A stretch of DNA of 19,577 bases from a virus (Duplodnaviria; Heunggongvirae; Uroviricota; Caudoviricetes), in the IMG/VR virus record IMGVR_UViG_2698536387_000012. One strand, written 5' to 3'. Position numbers and translations under genes: made by a program. This document shows, piece after piece, positions 2,906-17,616 of the stretch. Below the pieces are notes generated by a model that did not search any database, was not told the origin of the DNA, and worked only from the letters and a program-made list of their open reading frames with translations. The number at the start of each line of letters is the position of its first letter. Position 1 is the stretch's first letter.

Positions 2906-3112
2906 CTTCATTTTCACTTTTTTAAATCCAACGACAGACGGCTGGCATTTAAGTATTGTGAAATATTATCAAATGTAATCATCATTGATTTACAAAAGAT
3001 ACATTTTGCCCCGAAAGGATTCATGTCAGAAACATCAAAAGATGATGTTCTATACTGGGAACCATGACAACACGGGCATCTAAAGTGAATATGGTTTGTA
3101 ATATTGTCTACC

Positions 3113-3325
3113 TCAAAGCGCCACTACATGAACAGCGGCAGGACCTTTAGGTCCGTTCTCAATACCAAATTCAACTTCCTGATTCTCAGTTAATGTTTTG
3201 AAATCGTTGCTCTGAATTGCTGAGAAATGGACAAACACATCTTTGCTGCCATCTTTCGGCGTGATGAAACCAAAACCTTTTTCAGGGTTAAACCATTTCA
3301 CTAAACCAGTCATTTTGTTAGACAT
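3113..3325 (-). CDS. cspI: Cold-shock protein CspI, 70 aa
   Basis: [38 protein letters not shown]... carries the CspA-family RNP motifs (KGFGFI, VFVHF). Confidence 0.9.
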
Positions 3326-3686
3326 AATTATTACCTTTTGAAGAAATTAGCCCTTGGGCAGAATGGTCCGAAAAAAATATCAGAGAGAAAAACCAACAAG
3401 GAAATCTCAAGAGGTACAAATAATAAAATTATAACAATGACTGCTTCAGATAAATTTGTAACAAACCAGAACACCATTAACGCATGATTAACCACCCATA
3501 GCAAGGATTACTTTTGTAAAGAAAAACACAGCAATGAAAGAATAGCTTTATTTATTAATAAAACGTGTCATTCTGATTAAGACCTTTTATCTTACCCTTA
3601 AGATTTCAGGAATTTTGGCTCATGGAAGAGTCCTTTTTATTCAAATTTTACATTCCGCGATGTAAATGTTCCGATTTAATATTACC

Positions 3687-5714: not shown

Positions 5715-5995
5715 GAGATTGTGGTGCTTTTTGTGGGAGTCATCCACTTACGCACTTTGTTTTGCCATGCCAGCAGTTAGCTTCTGCTGTAAAACTATTC
5801 ATGCAGCAAACCTGCACTTCACCACAATGGTTAGCATACTTTTCCTGATTAAGATTTTGCCAAATATGCTAGCCATTGTTTCATGTATTGGACCTCCTTA
5901 TTTTTTATTAAAGAGATCCAATATTCACTACTCTGTCCGTATCTCTACTCAGGCATCAGCCTTCTTCGTTATCGTATACAGACGAGCGATGAATT

Positions 5996-6211
5996 TTAAT
6001 CAGTAATGATGACATTTGCTGCTGCAGGACCTTTAGCACCACTCTCTATAGAGAAGGTAACCTTTTGACCTTCAAATAAGGTTCGATAATTATCATTCTG
6101 AATCGCAGAAAAATGCACAAACACATCTTTACTACCATCAACAGGAGAAATAAAGCCGAAACCTTTATCAGCGTTAAACCATTTTACTAAACCAGTCATT
6201 TTATTTGACAT
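5996..6211 (-). CDS. cspB: Cold-shock protein CspB, 71 aa
   Basis: [71 protein letters not shown]; about 300-bp upstream non-coding leader typical of cspA-family genes. Confidence 0.9.
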
Positions 6212-6511
6212 TCTACATTCCTTAACTTGAGCCTTTCGGCATAAATGGTTTGCATAACAGAAACGACTTCGTACTTAATTGGAGAGACTCAAAGAAGGAA
6301 TAAGTGAATAACACCTGAAATGAGAACTGCTTTAGTAAACTACTTCGTATATCGTCTGTTCTTCAAACCGACGCAATCATTAACGCATAGTTGAACATAT
6401 GAAGCAATGTTTATTTTAGACATCCAGCCATCTTCAACCCCATCAAAAAACTATAGCTTTCTTCAGGAACGTGTGTATAGTGCGCCAAGTTATCAGTATT
6501 AAGGAATTTTT

Positions 6512-9307: not shown

Positions 9308-9559
9308 TTATTCTCCTGAAAAAGCAGAAAAGCCAGCTTTTATTCCGATCTCTTTCAATGCCTGTAATGAAGTGACAAACTCACCTTCGCGCAAGATAAA
9401 TCCGTCCGTGACCCGAGCATCCACAAAATTAATTAACGCAGCCCCATTCTTTCGCAAACACATAATGCGGTAATGACTAACAAGATTTCCATTTTCAACG
9501 CACACAGCATAGAGGCCATCTTCACAAAAAATTTTACGCAGTTCTTCGATGTTCATCAT
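9308..9559 (-). CDS. rem: Small protein, 83 aa, probably Rem
   Basis: ATG at 9559 with GGAAGGA 5 nt upstream; the length and position downstream of hokD match Rem as I recall it; sequence identity not verified. Confidence 0.55.
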   Translation of the reverse strand: MMNIEELRKIFCEDGLYAVCVENGNLVSHYRIMCLRKNGAALINFVDARVTDGFILREGEFVTSLQALKEIGIKAGFSAFSGE

Positions 9560-11597: not shown

Positions 11598-13230
11598 TTT
11601 TGTGGGGACAGTCCACAAAACTGCCAACTTCCGCTTCTTGCTCTTAGCGGACATTAGCATAGGCTATTTACCATAACGCCTCATTACGCGCACCGCCCAG
11701 ACTGACTCAGCGCGTTTCTGGCATATCCCCGGTAAAACAAGTAACAAACCACCCGAAAATGAACACCAGAAACGCGACTTAAGAATCTACCCTATGAATG
11801 GATATGCACTCAACCGAATCGATCTTGGTTTCAATCTATTTTATCGGGATCAGGCTTCTTTTTAGGTAACTTCGGGGGCTTAACTTGCTGATGACTTTGC
11901 GTTCGGCGCGTAAGCCAGGGATGGTCAGCTTTAGATTTAACATAGTATTTTGAGCGTAAATCAATACGGGCATTATCCACTCGTTCATGGACACTCTTTT
12001 CATCATCCAGTGGTATAGGCTCCGGGCCATCAACATACTTTTCCCAGCCCAGCGCTTTCCCGTCATACAGAACGTTAATTTCACCGTCAAAGTTCTCACA
12101 TACAGTAACAACCGAATGCCTAAGTCGATATCCCCGGCCCTCACTGCGTACCTGAAACGCACTGCTTTTGTACTGGAAAGTGAGATTTTTAGACAGAACG
12201 CGCTTCGCCTGTAGGCTGAAGATATAACCCAGTTCCTCTTCAGAATGGTGCACATCAAGATGAGCATTATCAGTAGTACGAGGCGACGTAGCGAACCGGT
12301 TGTTATAGGCTTCAATAAAGGTCGGCAACCATGCATTTGCTGTTTCAATATCACTGATATTCTGAAGCCGCATTTCTTTGACCAGCCTGTCCTGTAGTGT
12401 CTGATTGGCGCGCTCTACCCGCCCTTTTGCCTGCGGGCTGTTGGCATGGATTGGCTCGATGCCCAGTGTCTTTATCGCACGAGTGAACTGGGTCAGCTCA
12501 CCTTCCCGCTCTGGGTTATTTACCCTGAATATACTGTGTCTATCAGAGTAGAGAGCGAGCGGTACGCCATGATCATTAAGGTAACCCCGGAGGGTTTCCA
12601 TGTAAGCCCGGGTTGTTTCAGCAGGCACAAAACGCAACGCCATCAACGCACTGGTGGCATCATCAATGAAAACGATCAGTGTACATCTGGGGCCTCGATT
12701 TTCAAACCAGTCATGAGGTGAGCCATCAATCTGGATCAGTTCACCGTAAGATGGTCGTCGCATGCGGCGTTGATATATACGGGCAATTTTACGACGGCGT
12801 TCACGCCATAACCCCTCTTCTATCATCCACTTTCTGAGAGTTTCAACGGATAAAGATAAACCGTGTATCTCGCGCAATTTTTCGCACGCAAACGTAGGTC
12901 CAAAATCAGCGTAACGGCCTTTGAGGAGTGAAATTACTGTTGCTCTGAATTCAGTAGAAAAGGAATTATTAGGACGCTTTCCACGTCGGTGGGAAACCAG
13001 ACCAGAAGGCCCTTCATTTCTATACCGTTGCACCAGACGTTTAACCTGCCGAATAGAAATGCCAATGCGTGCCGCAGCTTGTTCCTGAGTAATATGTCGA
13101 TTAATTGACTCCTGAATAATCTGAAGTCGGTGGAGTTCCTTATGACTCATCGTAACAGTCTCTTTGATCATGAAAAATCCCCCAGAGAATTGTCTGGGGA
13201 CATTTTAGAATGGTTCAAAGGGGACATTAC
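11598..13230 (-). mobile_element. Insertion sequence carrying the transposase; boundaries are guesses
   Basis: I could not find terminal inverted repeats or target duplications. Bounds are bracketed by hairpins at 11598-11620 (TTTTGTGG-N7-CCACAAAA) and 13180-13199 (CCCCAGA-N6-TCTGGGG) and by repeated GGGGACA motifs. Confidence 0.25.
11831..13171 (-). CDS. DDE transposase with N-terminal HTH and rve/integrase-core domain (IS481/ISNCY-like), 446 aa
   Basis: N-terminal HTH (ITQEQAAARIGISIRQVKRLVQRY), catalytic core (IQIDGSPHDW...IVFIDDATS...LYSDRHSIF...KGRVERANQTL). The family call is approximate. Confidence 0.8.
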   Translation of the reverse strand: MIKETVTMSHKELHRLQIIQESINRHITQEQAAARIGISIRQVKRLVQRYRNEGPSGLVSHRRGKRPNNSFSTEFRATVISLLKGRYADFGPTFACEKLREIHGLSLSVETLRKWMIEEGLWRERRRKIARIYQRRMRRPSYGELIQIDGSPHDWFENRGPRCTLIVFIDDATSALMALRFVPAETTRAYMETLRGYLNDHGVPLALYSDRHSIFRVNNPEREGELTQFTRAIKTLGIEPIHANSPQAKGRVERANQTLQDRLVKEMRLQNISDIETANAWLPTFIEAYNNRFATSPRTTDNAHLDVHHSEEELGYIFSLQAKRVLSKNLTFQYKSSAFQVRSEGRGYRLRHSVVTVCENFDGEINVLYDGKALGWEKYVDGPEPIPLDDEKSVHERVDNARIDLRSKYYVKSKADHPWLTRRTQSHQQVKPPKLPKKKPDPDKID

Positions 13231-14630: not shown

Positions 14631-15132
14631 AATTCCATCCAGCTTTTTGTTGGTATTGCTGTCGATACGCAAGTTTGAAAGCAATTGCTTTTTCTATAAG
14701 TTCGTCAGTTTCACGATCCACTACGGCAGGATCAGCAAAAAGCAGTCCGGACTCCACCACATCGCCATATTCTTTGTTTAACCCGGCGATCATGTACGTG
14801 ATGCTTTTTCCGTCACTAATTTCACGATACAACCTGAAATCATTAATCCGAATAGCCTCCATAATTGCAGGCACTAGCGCCGTGAACTTTTCACGCTTAT
14901 CCCTGGTGTCGATAGCCTTCCAGCGTTCGAATATCTTCACTCGATTAACGCCAAGTGCTCGCTGATCAACCGCGCCACCTTCATCTGTGACACGCTGAAC
15001 ATCGATGTTCGGGCGCTCTTTCAAAGCCCAGAATGCTTCAGTGATTAATATCGTCGCCTGCTCCTGTGTCATTCCTGGTCGACATATCCAGGCATCCAGA
15101 GCCTCACGAGCCTGTTCAGGAGTGATTTTCAT
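14611..15132 (-). CDS. YdaT-like protein (cII position between Cro-like and O-like genes), 173 aa
   Basis: ORF MKITPEQAREALDAWICRPGMTQEQATILITEAF...; position mirrors ydaT of the Rac prophage; start overlaps the dicC 3' end by 17 nt; weak SD. Confidence 0.5.
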   Translation of the reverse strand: MKITPEQAREALDAWICRPGMTQEQATILITEAFWALKERPNIDVQRVTDEGGAVDQRALGVNRVKIFERWKAIDTRDKREKFTALVPAIMEAIRINDFRLYREISDGKSITYMIAGLNKEYGDVVESGLLFADPAVVDRETDELIEKAIAFKLAYRQQYQQKAGWNYEPSFC

Positions 15133-15343
15133 TGTTCAACCGCCCCGCCCGCTTCGTCTTACGATATTCGTCATAAACCTTGGGATCATACAGAAGCTCG
15201 CCGCCAGATGCCTCCTGTAGACGCATCGCGCGACCTTCAGGAACCAGCTCTTGCCATTGAGAAACAGCAGATGGGTCAACGCCAGCAGCTTTCGCTACTT
15301 TGGCTTTCGTACCGTAAAAATTAATTACGTCTGATTTAAACAT
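15116..15343 (-). CDS. dicC: DicC (Cro-like regulator), 75 aa
   Basis: ATG at 15343 preceded by GGAGGTG; C-terminus ...VPEGRAMRLQEASGGELLYDPKVYDEYRKTKRAGRLNNENHS matches DicC as recalled; divergent from dicA. Confidence 0.75.
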   Translation of the reverse strand: MFKSDVINFYGTKAKVAKAAGVDPSAVSQWQELVPEGRAMRLQEASGGELLYDPKVYDEYRKTKRAGRLNNENHS

Positions 15344-15356
15344 CGCACCTCCAATA

Positions 15357-15370
15357 TTGAGTTTTCTCAA
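15357..15370. promoter_or_regulatory. Operator-like palindrome TTGAG-TTTT-CTCAA in the dicC-dicA intergenic region
   Basis: Read directly; near-identical copies occur at 15893-15906 and, inverted, at 15927-15941. Confidence 0.5.
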
Positions 15371-15420
15371 TGCTAATCACTCAAGGAATCTCAAGTCAAG
15401 GGTTATTAAGATATCTAAAT

Positions 15421-15828
15421 ATGAACGAGAAAACTTTAGGTCAACGCATTAGAGAAAGACGTAAGCAGGTAGGCTTAAGTCAAAACGGTTTAAGCAAAGC
15501 TGCTGGCGTATCTGGCTCATCAATTTCATTATGGGAAAGTGACCATACAGCCCCGCGCGGGCAAAATTTGCATCGCCTCGCCGAGGTATTGCAATGTTCA
15601 CCAACTTGGATACTGTTTGGCGACGAGGACAAAACACCAGCTCCCCCTGTTTCACTCGATAGTGCCTTAGACTTATCGGAAGATGAGTTAGAGATGCTGC
15701 GTTTGTATCGCGCACTTCCTAAATCAGAGCAACAAGCACAACTCAGCGAACTCCGCGCCCGCGTTGAGAATTTTAATCGCCTGTTCACCGAGCTATTAGA
15801 GGCTCGCAAACGCAACAAGCATCAATAA
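15421..15828 (+). CDS. dicA: DicA-like repressor (HTH-XRE), 135 aa
   Basis: HTH region GLSQNGLSKAAGVSGSSISLWES; C-terminal half (...LQCSPTWILFGDEDK...) resembles K-12 DicA as recalled, N-terminal half diverged. ATG at 15421 gives the DicA length; the alternative ATG at 15370 lies inside the operator. Confidence 0.75.
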   Translation: MNEKTLGQRIRERRKQVGLSQNGLSKAAGVSGSSISLWESDHTAPRGQNLHRLAEVLQCSPTWILFGDEDKTPAPPVSLDSALDLSEDELEMLRLYRALPKSEQQAQLSELRARVENFNRLFTELLEARKRNKHQ

Positions 15829-15892
15829 TCATCCCTTCACAAAATTTTAAAGCCTTACATTTCAATGTATTGGCTTTATCTTGCGCCAACAC

Positions 15893-15944
15893 TTGAGTTT
15901 TCTCATCAAAAAACCTTGACGAAAAATAATGAGAAAACTAAATT
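15893..15944 (+). promoter_or_regulatory. dicB-operon promoter candidate (-35 TTGACG, -10 TAAATT) flanked and overlapped by two operator copies
   Basis: TTGAGTTTTCTCAT (15893-15906), TTGACG (15916-15921), 17-bp spacer, TAAATT (15939-15944); inverted operator copy ATGAGAAAACTAA overlaps the spacer and -10. Confidence 0.45.
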
Positions 15945-16020
15945 ACCTCCATCAAGACACCGCACGGTGTTCTCAGCAAACAGTTCCGCTACCCCGGCGT
16001 TAAGGGGAAATGAGGTCAGC

Positions 16021-16176
16021 ATGGATACTATCGATCTTGGCAACAGCGAATCTCTGGTATGTGGCGTGTTCCCCAACCAGGACGGCACGTTCACCGCGAT
16101 GACGTATACCAAAAGCAAAACGTTTAAAACCGAAAATGGTGCCCGTCGCTGGCTGGAAAGAAACTCAGGTGAGTGA
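16021..16176 (+). CDS. ydfA: YdfA, 51 aa
   Basis: MDTIDLGNSESLVCGVFPNQDGTFTAMTYTKSKTFKTENGARRWLERNSGE; GAGGT 6 nt upstream. The track's N-terminal extension has no SD. Confidence 0.85.
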   Translation: MDTIDLGNSESLVCGVFPNQDGTFTAMTYTKSKTFKTENGARRWLERNSGE

Positions 16177-16177
16177 T

Positions 16178-16753
16178 ATGGATTTCGACACAATCATGGA
16201 AAAGGCTTACGAAGAATACTTCGAAGGCCTTGCCGAAGGCGAAGAAGCTCTCAGCTTCAGTGAGTTTAAACAGGAACTCAGAATAAGAATGTGCTCTCAC
16301 AATGACGCGGAGCACAAATATGAGAAGCAAAATCAGACCGCAGAAAATTTTGTTCTGGAACCCGGAGAAACGCTTTTCAAAATTCCCGTTACGTGCCCCA
16401 TTTGCGGTTTTACATCAGAAGAACTTGACGACTCCTGTAACAATCAGGAAACAACCAAGTATGTCGAAGATGATACCGAGTGCGCACGAAGAACGATTAT
16501 ATCCACGAGTCCAAACTCCAGGACCAATAAATCTCACTATGAGAGGGTGATTAATCCACTCCCCCAAACCAATAAAAAAGATGCCGGAGGACAAAAAACC
16601 CAATGGAACAACGGGATATCTGTCAAAAAAAGACGTTCCATTAAAGACAAACAACGCAGCGCCAACAACTGTAAGAGCTTTATACCAGTAATCAATTTTC
16701 ATGTTCTTAAGCGGATTTATTGGTGGTTGCGACATTGCTTAATGAATCCTTAA
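16178..16753 (+). CDS. Hypothetical protein, 191 aa, in the ydfB/ydfC position
   Basis: ATG at 16178 with AGGTGAG upstream, 1 nt after the ydfA stop; internal CPICGF motif; the C-terminal half is low-complexity (K/N/Q/S-rich) and overlaps an antisense hydrophobic ORF (16415-16735). Confidence 0.45.
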   Translation: MDFDTIMEKAYEEYFEGLAEGEEALSFSEFKQELRIRMCSHNDAEHKYEKQNQTAENFVLEPGETLFKIPVTCPICGFTSEELDDSCNNQETTKYVEDDTECARRTIISTSPNSRTNKSHYERVINPLPQTNKKDAGGQKTQWNNGISVKKRRSIKDKQRSANNCKSFIPVINFHVLKRIYWWLRHCLMNP

Positions 16754-17012
16754 AACTGTGGTGATTTTAAGGATACCACCTCGCCTGACGTGGTTAAAAG
16801 CAGGCACACAACACGAAAGCGCACGGCGAAGTTCGTCTCACTGTACGGTGTCGTTAAATTTAATTCGACCGTGCGCTTCCGGTTGTGGCAACCCGCAAAA
16901 TGGCGCGGCGGTAAGTATGGCGGGGTTATTCCTTCCCCGTTGAGGACACCGGGTTGTCAGGTTGACCATACGCTTAAGTGACAACCCCGCTGCAACGCCC
17001 TCTGTTATCAAT

Positions 17013-17070
17013 TTTCTGGTGACGTTTGGCGGTATCAGTTTTACTCCGTGACTGCTCTGCCGCCCTTTTT
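17013..17070 (+). ncRNA. dicF: DicF small RNA (cell-division inhibitor sRNA)
   Basis: Matches DicF as I recall it: UUUCUGGUGACGUUUGGCGGUAUCAGUUUUACUCCGUGACUGCUCUGCCGCCCUUUUU; ends in a terminator-like stem plus U-tract; sits upstream of dicB. Confidence 0.85.
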
Positions 17071-17239
17071 AAAGTGAATTTTGTGATGCGGTGAATACGG
17101 CTAAGCGCACGCGGAACAGTTAAAACCAAAAACAGTGTTATGGGTGGATTCTCTGTATCCGACGTTAATTGTTAACTGGTTAACGTCACCTGGAGGCACC
17201 AGGCACTGCATCACAAAATTCATTGTTGAGGACGCGATA

Positions 17240-17428
17240 ATGAAAACGTTATTACCAAACGTTAATACGTCTGAAGGTTGTTTTGAAATTGGTGTCACTA
17301 TCAGTAACCCTGTATTTACTGAAGATGCCATTAACAAGAGAAAACAAGAACGGGAGCTATTAAATAAAATATGCATTGTTTCAATGCTGGCTCGTTTACG
17401 TCTGATGCCAAAAGGATGTGCACAATGA
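17240..17428 (+). CDS. dicB: DicB cell-division inhibitor, 62 aa
   Basis: MKTLLPNVNTSEGCFEIGVTISNPVFTEDAINKRKQERELLNKICIVSMLARLRLMPKGCAQ; GAGGA upstream. The track ORF includes an unsupported N-terminal extension. Confidence 0.9.
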   Translation: MKTLLPNVNTSEGCFEIGVTISNPVFTEDAINKRKQERELLNKICIVSMLARLRLMPKGCAQ

Positions 17429-17616
17429 ATTCAGCATTTGCGCTTGTTCTGACAGTTTTTCTTGTTTCCGGAGTGCCAGTTGATATTGCAGTCAGTGTTC
17501 ACAGGACAATGCAGGAGTGTATGACTGCAGCAACCGAACAGAAAATTCCCGGTAACTGTTACCCGGTCGATAAAGTTATTCACCAGGATAATATCGAAAT
17601 CCCGGCAGGTCTTTAA
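17425..17616 (+). CDS. ydfD: YdfD, 63 aa, membrane-associated lysis protein
   Basis: MNSAFALVLTVFLVSGVPVDIAVSVHRTMQECMTAATEQKIPGNCYPVDKVIHQDNIEIPAGL; start overlaps the dicB stop (ATGA). Confidence 0.85.
   Translation: MNSAFALVLTVFLVSGVPVDIAVSVHRTMQECMTAATEQKIPGNCYPVDKVIHQDNIEIPAGL

Follow-up and report, generated by a model that had tools for sequence, protein, structure and literature searches.

Does one repressor control both its own switch and a division-inhibitor operon by reading the same short operator at both places? The question is raised by a motif that recurs around the divergent dicC/dicA region and the dicB promoter in the stretch of viral DNA analysed here (19,577 nucleotides, about 19.6 kb; hereafter the window). 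The window is a Qin-like E. coli prophage, the tested kilobase of which is 100% identical to E. coli DSM 103246, and besides the genes considered below it carries cspB/cspF, ydfT, rem, hokD, relBE, a ydaT-like gene, and exonuclease and integrase genes. The first-pass annotation had described a 77-bp divergent dicC/dicA region, a TTGACG-N17-TAAATT promoter upstream of ydfA and an operon running from ydfA through dicF and dicB to ydfD, and all of these elements were recovered: the 77-bp gap between the dicC-like and dicA-like genes spans 15344-15420, the promoter was found by promoter scan, dicF was identified by Rfam, and dicB and ydfD follow in the annotation. The relevant features are:

15116-15343, minus strand: dicC-like gene, Cro-type regulator of 75 aa, WP_000476993.1, annotated as Cro/CI family (Pfam P22_Cro, E 3e-16)
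15370-15399, minus strand: dicC-like promoter, TTGACT (15399-15394), 18-nt spacer, TAGCAT (15375-15370), from the promoter scan
15421-15828, plus strand: dicA-like repressor gene, 135 aa, WP_001003381.1, from the annotation, with an N-terminal P22 C2-type HTH
15848-15878, plus strand: hairpin 3' of the dicA-like stop codon (-11.3 kcal/mol, z -3.1)
15916-15944, plus strand: dicBp, TTGACG (15916-15921), 17-nt spacer, TAAATT (15939-15944), from the promoter scan, 9/12 matches
16021-17616, plus strand: controlled operon ydfA, truncated ydfB, dicF, dicB, ydfD
16021-16176, plus strand: ydfA, from the annotation of the identical record (Pfam DUF1391)
within 16021-17616, plus strand: truncated ydfB, from the annotation
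17014-17065, plus strand: dicF (Rfam DicF, 76.7 bits)
17240-17428, plus strand: dicB, from the annotation
17425-17616, plus strand: ydfD, from the annotation

For the dicA promoter, only a weak -10-like hexamer was found. The hairpin at 15848-15878 is likely the dicA terminator, and was not called by the terminator scan because its T-run is weak. A consensus RNA structure for the conserved dicBF leader showed no covariation.

The motif, TTGAGTTTTCTCA, had been reported as a 14-bp operator present in three copies. Scanning the 19.6-kb window, we found it twice as an exact match on the plus strand (15357-15369 and 15893-15905) and once as an inverted copy with one mismatch, TTTAGTTTTCTCA, on the minus strand at 15930-15942. 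The count of three and the inversion of the third copy therefore stand; the motif as spelled out is 13 letters long instead of 14, and the coordinates of the third copy are 15929/30-15942 rather than 15927-15941. There are no further matches to TTGAGTTTTCTCA in the window at up to two mismatches, and a candidate site in the 5' coding region of dicA (15426-15438, three mismatches) was rejected on its very poor dyad score. A search of the searchable literature for the motif returned a single match, an unrelated Drosophila paper. Dyad inspection revealed a 7-4-7 site format with a TTTT centre, all three copies being near-palindromes of 16-18 bp of the form ATTGAG-TTTT-CTCAAT:

15356-15371, no strand assigned: O1, ATTGAG TTTT CTCAAT, a perfect 6-4-6 palindrome
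15892-15907, no strand assigned: O2, CTTGAG TTTT CTCATC
15928-15943, no strand assigned: O3, AATGAG AAAA CTAAAT

O1 has the highest dyad score in the window and overlaps the final 2 nt of the dicC-like promoter -10 together with the start region; its TGAGTTTTCTCAA is invariant among 17 distinct upstream sequences, two Buttiauxella species included. O2 (third-best dyad score) ends 8 bp upstream of the dicBp -35 and is kept in 43 distinct downstream sequences, a few singleton changes excepted. O3 (second-best dyad score) overlies the spacer and -10 of dicBp, and its core TGAGAAAACTAA is kept in Buttiauxella. The right half of O3 is weak (CTAAAT versus CTCAAT) because it doubles as the dicBp -10 (TAAATT): with a consensus half-site in this place, the -10 would lose the A at its second position. 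Single changes in O2 or O3 occur in a few prophage copies, and the TTTT centre, invariant in O1, is altered in one singleton O2 copy only (L090, CTTT). O2 and O3 are 36 bp apart, a non-integral number of helical turns, so cooperative binding to the two is not implied.

Could such repeats have arisen by coincidence in AT-rich intergenic DNA? With 13 families in the window, exact 13-mer repeats are not unusual, and at three mismatches the TTGAGTTTTCTCA pattern is at background level. Because one exact pair is thus not significant window-wide, we used region-restricted shuffles and comparative data. A 13-nt word common to the 77-bp and 192-bp intergenic regions that flank the repressor gene was reached in 2 of 5,000 dinucleotide shuffles; this figure takes no account of the third copy, the dyad symmetry or the conservation. 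As a negative control we took 80 unrelated viral contigs containing TGAGTTTTCTCAAT from a 14-mer reverse search, nearly all matches of which arise by chance, so that it was of use in this role only. No DicA-like gene and at most two scattered core copies were present in 76 of the 80, and the other four had at least three copies in the same 536/36-bp layout and all encode the same DicA-like protein. In the window, moreover, the copies are dyads that stand in register with promoter elements to within a nucleotide or two, and their cores are identical in another genus. Together with the covariation described below, this conservation refutes coincidence for practical purposes, and we assign it a negligible probability.

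The inverted arrangement of O2 and O3 also allows them to be read as the arms of a hairpin in RNA or DNA, for example a terminator or processing signal for read-through from dicA, rather than as protein sites. Across a 22-nt loop the 14-nt arms are 93% complementary, and the RNA fold (-11.2 kcal/mol, z -4.7) is in keeping with this proposal. However, the same sequence stands alone at O1 in the divergent region, and every copy has a dyad symmetry of its own, a feature superfluous for a long-range hairpin. The loop would hold the -35 of dicBp, the singleton changes in O2 and O3 are never compensated, no T-run follows, the terminator scan was negative, and a separate terminator-like hairpin is already present upstream at 15848-15878. 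A terminator formed by O2 and O3 was rejected on these grounds, and we consider the hairpin interpretation as a whole highly improbable.

For the K-12 Qin prophage, the dicA/dicC locus, Oc and the dicBp operators have been described (Bejar et al. 1988, as relayed in PMC10448788; Yun et al. 2012, PMC3441716). Oc (TTGTTAGTCATAACTAACAA) is the DicA site in vivo, where a single base change abolishes DicA action, and it alone is bound, Om and Oa being unbound by DicA in vivo (PMC3441716). K-12 dicBp is strongly repressed by DicA (PMC10448788). A paper on DicC of O157:H7 holds no operator or binding data. Set side by side, the wiring of the K-12 and window loci is equal within a nucleotide or two and the recognition sequence is different. 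Both have the gene order ydaT/ydfX, dicC, dicA, ydfA...dicF, dicB, ydfD with divergent promoters, a short repressor without a cleavage domain, and the rem antirepressor gene. Both have a dyad at the dicCp -10/+1, O1 occupying the position of Oc, which in the K-12-type locus likewise begins at the end of the dicC -10. Finally, dicBp lies in the same place as K-12 dicBp, its -35 flanked in both loci by two dyads: in the K-12-type dicBp (TTGACC-17-TAATCT), the related dyads ATGTTAGCTATAGCATACA and ATGTTAGTCATGGCTAATC occupy the DNA upstream of the -35 and the spacer/-10 segment, 35 bp apart versus 36 bp here. The operator itself reads ATTGAG-TTTT-CTCAAT in the window and TTGTTAGT-CATA-ACTAACAA in K-12. 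The K-12 operator TTGTTAGTCATAACTAACAA is absent from the window at up to three mismatches, and the window motif is absent from the K-12-type locus.

The proteins differ accordingly in the parts that read DNA. Compared with K-12, identity is only 57% for the repressor (to DicA) and 70% for the Cro-like protein (to DicC), and the differences concentrate in the N-terminal DNA-reading parts (the HTH in the DicC-like protein), including the recognition helices. With VSGSSISLWE here versus ISHVSVSQWE in K-12, the repressor falls outside the K-12 specificity group. Since the operators do not cross-match in either direction and the helices are changed, the K-12 and window loci are predicted to be heteroimmune. 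Sliding identity to the K-12-type locus delimits the exchanged segment:

15245-15950 (about 700 bp), no strand assigned: immunity cassette differing from K-12 Qin, extending from within the dicC-like gene, at its HTH-coding part, as far as about +1 of dicBp

Identity is 95-100% outside this segment and drops to 17-85% (mostly 30-65%) within it. The segment contains all three motif copies, and its right edge falls just past O3 at the predicted dicBp start. Judged by this profile, the segment is a swapped immunity cassette of the classical type, and we read it as a heteroimmune swap of the K-12 dicA/dicC module, which is a known system and no new kind of element. The first-pass annotation had taken K-12 operators of unrelated sequence as grounds against its model. 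The K-12 operators are in the same places and differ in sequence, which is what a swapped cassette predicts, so that this expectation was mis-set; the proposal of one repressor acting at both places itself agrees with the published K-12 model (PMC3441716, PMC10448788).

What kind of protein would read these sites? Residues 1-68 of the repressor align without gaps to the N-terminal domain of P22 C2 (1adr, 2r1j, 3jxb; E about 1e-15), and no S24 peptidase domain was found in its 135 aa, Pfam reporting HTH_3 only. The P22 C2 dimer binds 18-bp dyads and contacts positions 2-7 and 12-17; the central 4 bp are uncontacted and must adopt a narrow-groove B' form, for which A-tracts are most favourable (PMC4267663). 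The near-invariant TTTT centre fits this type of indirect readout. With a homologous HTH, 6-7 contacted bases per half (the contacts being taken from P22) and an A/T-rich 4-bp centre, the window repressor and its sites appear to share the P22 C2-type geometry. As in P22, the half-sites end in AG (TTTAAG in P22, ATTGAG here), and a site at 15405-15420 (ATTAAGATATCTAAAT), to which we return below, is almost a P22 operator. Helix residues 32, 33, 34 and 37 are N, V, A and Q in P22 and G, S, S and L here, differences that are consistent with a different half-site. Glu42, Glu44 and Glu48 of P22 are replaced by His, Ala and Gln, and the C-terminal part is short and, unlike that of P22 C2, has no RecA-cleavable peptidase domain. 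The lack of this domain groups the repressor with the antirepressor-released DicA/Gifsy subclass and not with lambda CI or P22 C2. The Gifsy repressors GfoR and GfhR are controlled by antirepressors (as cited in PMC10448788), and, as far as that citation describes them, resemble the window system in a short repressor without the Ala-Gly cleavage site; here, the antirepressor gene rem lies on the prophage. In K-12, Rem is the antirepressor that releases DicA (PMC10448788).

If the motif is read by the repressor, operator and recognition helix should change together among relatives. We assembled 13 genomic loci and 80 viral contigs encoding relatives of the repressor and grouped them by recognition helix. 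Twelve loci fell into five helix classes, and each class has a dyad of its own both at the switch and at dicBp:

VS[GD]SSISLWE, in E. coli and, at 74-76% protein identity, in Buttiauxella ferragutiae and B. gaviniae: TGAGTTTTCTCA(A) both at the switch and 5' of the -35, with TGAGAAAACTAA overlying the -10, in the same orientation
ISHVSVSQWE, in K-12 and Citrobacter sp. NCU1: TGTTAG[TC]-[CT]AT[AG]-type dyads
VSHVTISQWE or VAHVTISQWE, in Yersinia, Rosenbergiella and Symbiopectobacterium: TGTTAGA-TTTT-type dyads
ISHATISLWE, in Citrobacter braakii: TGTTGAG-TTTN dyads
[RK]SSVSVFKWE, in E. whittamii and an enterobacterium: TAAC-N4-GTTA dyads

In a cross-matrix of 14-mers, mismatches numbered 0-1 within the VS[GD]SSISLWE class and 3-5 to the K-12-, Yersinia- and TAAC-type classes, with L007, the C. 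braakii locus, in between at 1-3, its helix having ISLWE in common; the matrix is clean for classes A and E only and noisy for the middle classes. We relied on positional homology because the AT-rich background gives 2-3 mismatches elsewhere in the matrix. In seven loci that together represent all five classes, the distance from the start of the O1-type dyad to the dicA ATG is 65-68 nt, and the dicC -35 lies 20-23 nt before the ATG in most loci, typically at -22/-23 across the classes. In locus L010 these distances are 74 and 29 nt, since the chosen start codon is 6 nt further downstream. Within the VS[GD]SSISLWE class, the intergenic DNA around the dyads has diverged, and the Buttiauxella loci, which have the same helix, keep all three 12-bp cores identical to E. 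coli between diverged flanks. When E. coli was compared with each Buttiauxella species, 41 of 48 operator columns (85%) were identical versus 97-99 of 151 other intergenic columns (64-66%; Fisher p = 0.007-0.01, with the additional site Oa discussed below excluded).

The recognition helix of the Cro-type protein also changes in line with the operator class ([VI]DPSAVSQW in the VS[GD]SSISLWE class versus IRLASLYSW in K-12), and this bears on a different assignment, in which the reader of the sites is chiefly or exclusively the Cro-like DicC homologue, or else a host nucleoid protein with a preference for AT-rich DNA, and not the DicA-like repressor. Cro does bind the same operators in lambdoid switches, and the K-12 switch is influenced by H-NS/Cnu (PMC3441716). 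Yet in K-12 it is DicA, not DicC, that acts at Oc and represses dicBp, and the covariation with the DicA-like helix is equally strict. A host protein cannot account for the fact that, within a single host species, corresponding positions carry different dyads. We regard this assignment as improbable, if somewhat less so than the hairpin.

Position, palindromes, conservation and helix covariation thus support the first-pass proposal that one repressor could serve both its own switch and the dicB operon. We hold with good confidence that the three copies serve a Qin-like prophage as the operators of its lambdoid/P22-type immunity switch, and the motif very probably marks the binding sites of a DicA relative that shuts off the rival regulator and the division-inhibitor operon.

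The 77-bp switch region may contain further sites. A symmetric half-site matrix was derived from O1, O2 and O3 as they occur in four loci; scanned across the window, it brought out two candidates:

15405-15420, no strand assigned: Oa candidate, ATTAAG ATAT CTAAAT, abutting the dicA-like ATG
15380-15395, no strand assigned: Om candidate, CTCAAG GAAT CTCAAG

The Oa candidate ranks fourth of 19,562 positions with a matrix untrained on it, and does not vary in any class-A locus or in L007. With Oa counted, the contrast between operator and other intergenic columns sharpens to p = 2e-5 to 5e-5, and we consider it probably a fourth operator site. The Om candidate has one good half-site only, overlaps the -35 of the dicC-like promoter, ranks 19th of 19,562 by dyad score and is partly conserved, which makes it a weak candidate for a middle site. 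The centres of O1, Om and Oa are spaced 24 and 25 bp. As K-12 Om and Oa are unbound by DicA in vivo, their counterparts here may be weak or preferred by the Cro-type protein.

With up to three switch sites at centres 24-25 bp apart, like OR1-3, the locus resembles lambda, with which it also shares a divergent repressor and cro pair, a leftward early promoter with an operator cluster of its own and possibly a leaderless repressor mRNA. It differs from lambda in that its Cro belongs to another fold class (the P22_Cro family), in having two clear sites only at the PL-like promoter, and in lacking an SOS-cleavable domain. Of the features that characterize lambdoid switches, the window has divergent repressor and Cro-type genes across a short gap (the dicC promoter being predicted), repeated dyads over core promoter elements at the switch and at the early-left promoter, and an operator sequence that covaries with the recognition helices among heteroimmune relatives; a RecA-stimulated self-cleavage domain in the repressor is absent.

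From the layout, conservation and covariation observed here we infer binding, repression and site preference by the protein as follows. A dimer of the DicA-like repressor would sit on each 16-18 bp dyad, reading the half-site ATTGAG, leaving the 4-bp A-tract centre uncontacted and reading the mirrored half-site. At O1 it would cover the end of the dicC-like -10 and the start, keeping the Cro-like gene and the ydaT/replication genes off, and by analogy with K-12 it may stimulate its own transcription from there. At O3 it would cover the spacer and -10 of dicBp and at O2 it would be placed just upstream of the -35, where it probably contributes; occupancy of O2 and O3 would exclude RNA polymerase and silence ydfA-dicF-dicB-ydfD. 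Most likely these sites are also read by the Cro-like DicC homologue, which, once made, would shut off dicA, most plausibly from Oa, the best candidate site for this step. Because the repressor has no peptidase domain, release is expected through an antirepressor, rem being present, and not through RecA-mediated cleavage.

Two further readings go beyond this scheme, and taken jointly we consider them doubtful. Oligomers of the DicA-like protein might connect the two operator clusters across the 536-572 bp that separate them, in which case a small loop would enclose the repressor gene. Such a loop would resemble the lambda OL-OR arrangement and couple repression of the division inhibitor to autoregulation, with Oa, on a leaderless dicA start, as the feedback site. 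In addition, helix position 37, which is Q, L or K with half-sites TTAG, TGAG or TAAC, could amount to a simple recognition code for DicA/P22 C2-type proteins.

The switch opens no new mechanism and would not surprise a specialist. The DicA site at K-12 dicB has a low-evidence rating and its location is listed as unknown (PMC7567609), so the comparative map has some practical value, and it offers independent comparative support for the place of DicA action at dicBp. The helix classes provide a natural small series for how P22 C2-type helices shift specificity. Knowing the operators would also guide the design of reporters for dicB and dicF induction and allow prediction of which Qin-like prophages are immune to which phages. 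The cassette is present in about 797 of 5,426 complete E. coli genomes, and the same cassette, 99.4-99.6% identical, occurs in at least two deposited phage genomes, mEp460_ev081 and HannyBb, the former being a functional temperate phage (PMC10448788).

In none of the 12 loci compared did we find a Shine-Dalgarno sequence upstream of the ATG of the dicA-like repressor gene (15421 in the window). A -10-like hexamer ends 8-9 nt 5' of this start codon, reading TAAGAT in the window, with TAGCAT at the equivalent position in K-12 and TAGAAT in the Yersinia-type loci. Together, these two features suggest that the repressor mRNA may be leaderless, as is that of lambda cI when transcribed from PRM. The operator-like dyad ATTAAGATATCTAAAT lies at precisely this place (region 15405-15423), and is also retained in Citrobacter braakii, a locus of a different recognition-helix class.

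Downstream of the same gene, a hairpin that is partially conserved in Buttiauxella is probably a weak terminator between dicA and the dicB-operon promoter, dicBp:
15848-15878, 3' of the dicA-like stop codon, hairpin AAAGCC...GGCTTT, -11.3 kcal/mol

We also observed a perfect 14-nt inverted repeat (15279-15292 / 15496-15509; ACGCCAGCAGCTTT / AAAGCTGCTGGCGT), with one copy in the helix-turn-helix region of the dicC-like gene and the other in that of the divergent dicA-like gene, each specifying Lys-Ala-Ala-Gly-Val; it could reflect either common ancestry or coincidence.

The leader of the dicB operon (15951-16020; CATCAA...CACCGCACGGTG...GTTCCGCTACCCCGGCGTTAAGGGG) is kept across genera and immunity classes and begins where the swapped cassette, the immunity segment differing from K-12 Qin, ends on its right. 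RNAalifold gave no covariation support for an RNA structure within 15951-16020. In the Yersinia-type loci, hairpins similar to lambda boxB are found at the leader position. Further downstream, the interval from the dicF terminator to the start of dicB contains a perfect 15-nt inverted repeat (17075-17089 / 17208-17222; TGAATTTTGTGATGC / GCATCACAAAATTCA), whose two arms might pair over a long range as a stem within the polycistronic transcript.

Within the operon, ydfB is truncated and unrelated DNA replaces the K-12 ydfC region (16280-17000). This segment is a second mosaic piece, present in ~794 complete E. coli genomes, and contains an unannotated reading frame:
16415-16735, minus strand, hydrophobic ORF of 106 aa

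The window also encodes an antirepressor:
9308-9559, minus strand, rem, WP_000980994.1
The same Rem accession is common to the window's strain type and a K-12-type strain, whereas the DicA proteins of these strain types are just 57% identical. Either the target of Rem is the C-terminal portion of DicA, which is conserved, or this antirepressor has no effect on the window's repressor.

The remaining features lie elsewhere in the prophage:
3086-3470, minus strand, Rfam cspA thermoregulator match, leader of a prophage cold-shock gene
5980-6372, minus strand, Rfam cspA thermoregulator match, leader of a prophage cold-shock gene
12101-13150, minus strand, ISEsa1 transposase fragment (IS1202-like), annotated in the identical E. 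coli record
The two thermoregulator matches score 114 and 159 bits, respectively, and such leaders are ordinary for Qin. The ISEsa1 fragment adjoins the replication genes and signals prophage decay.
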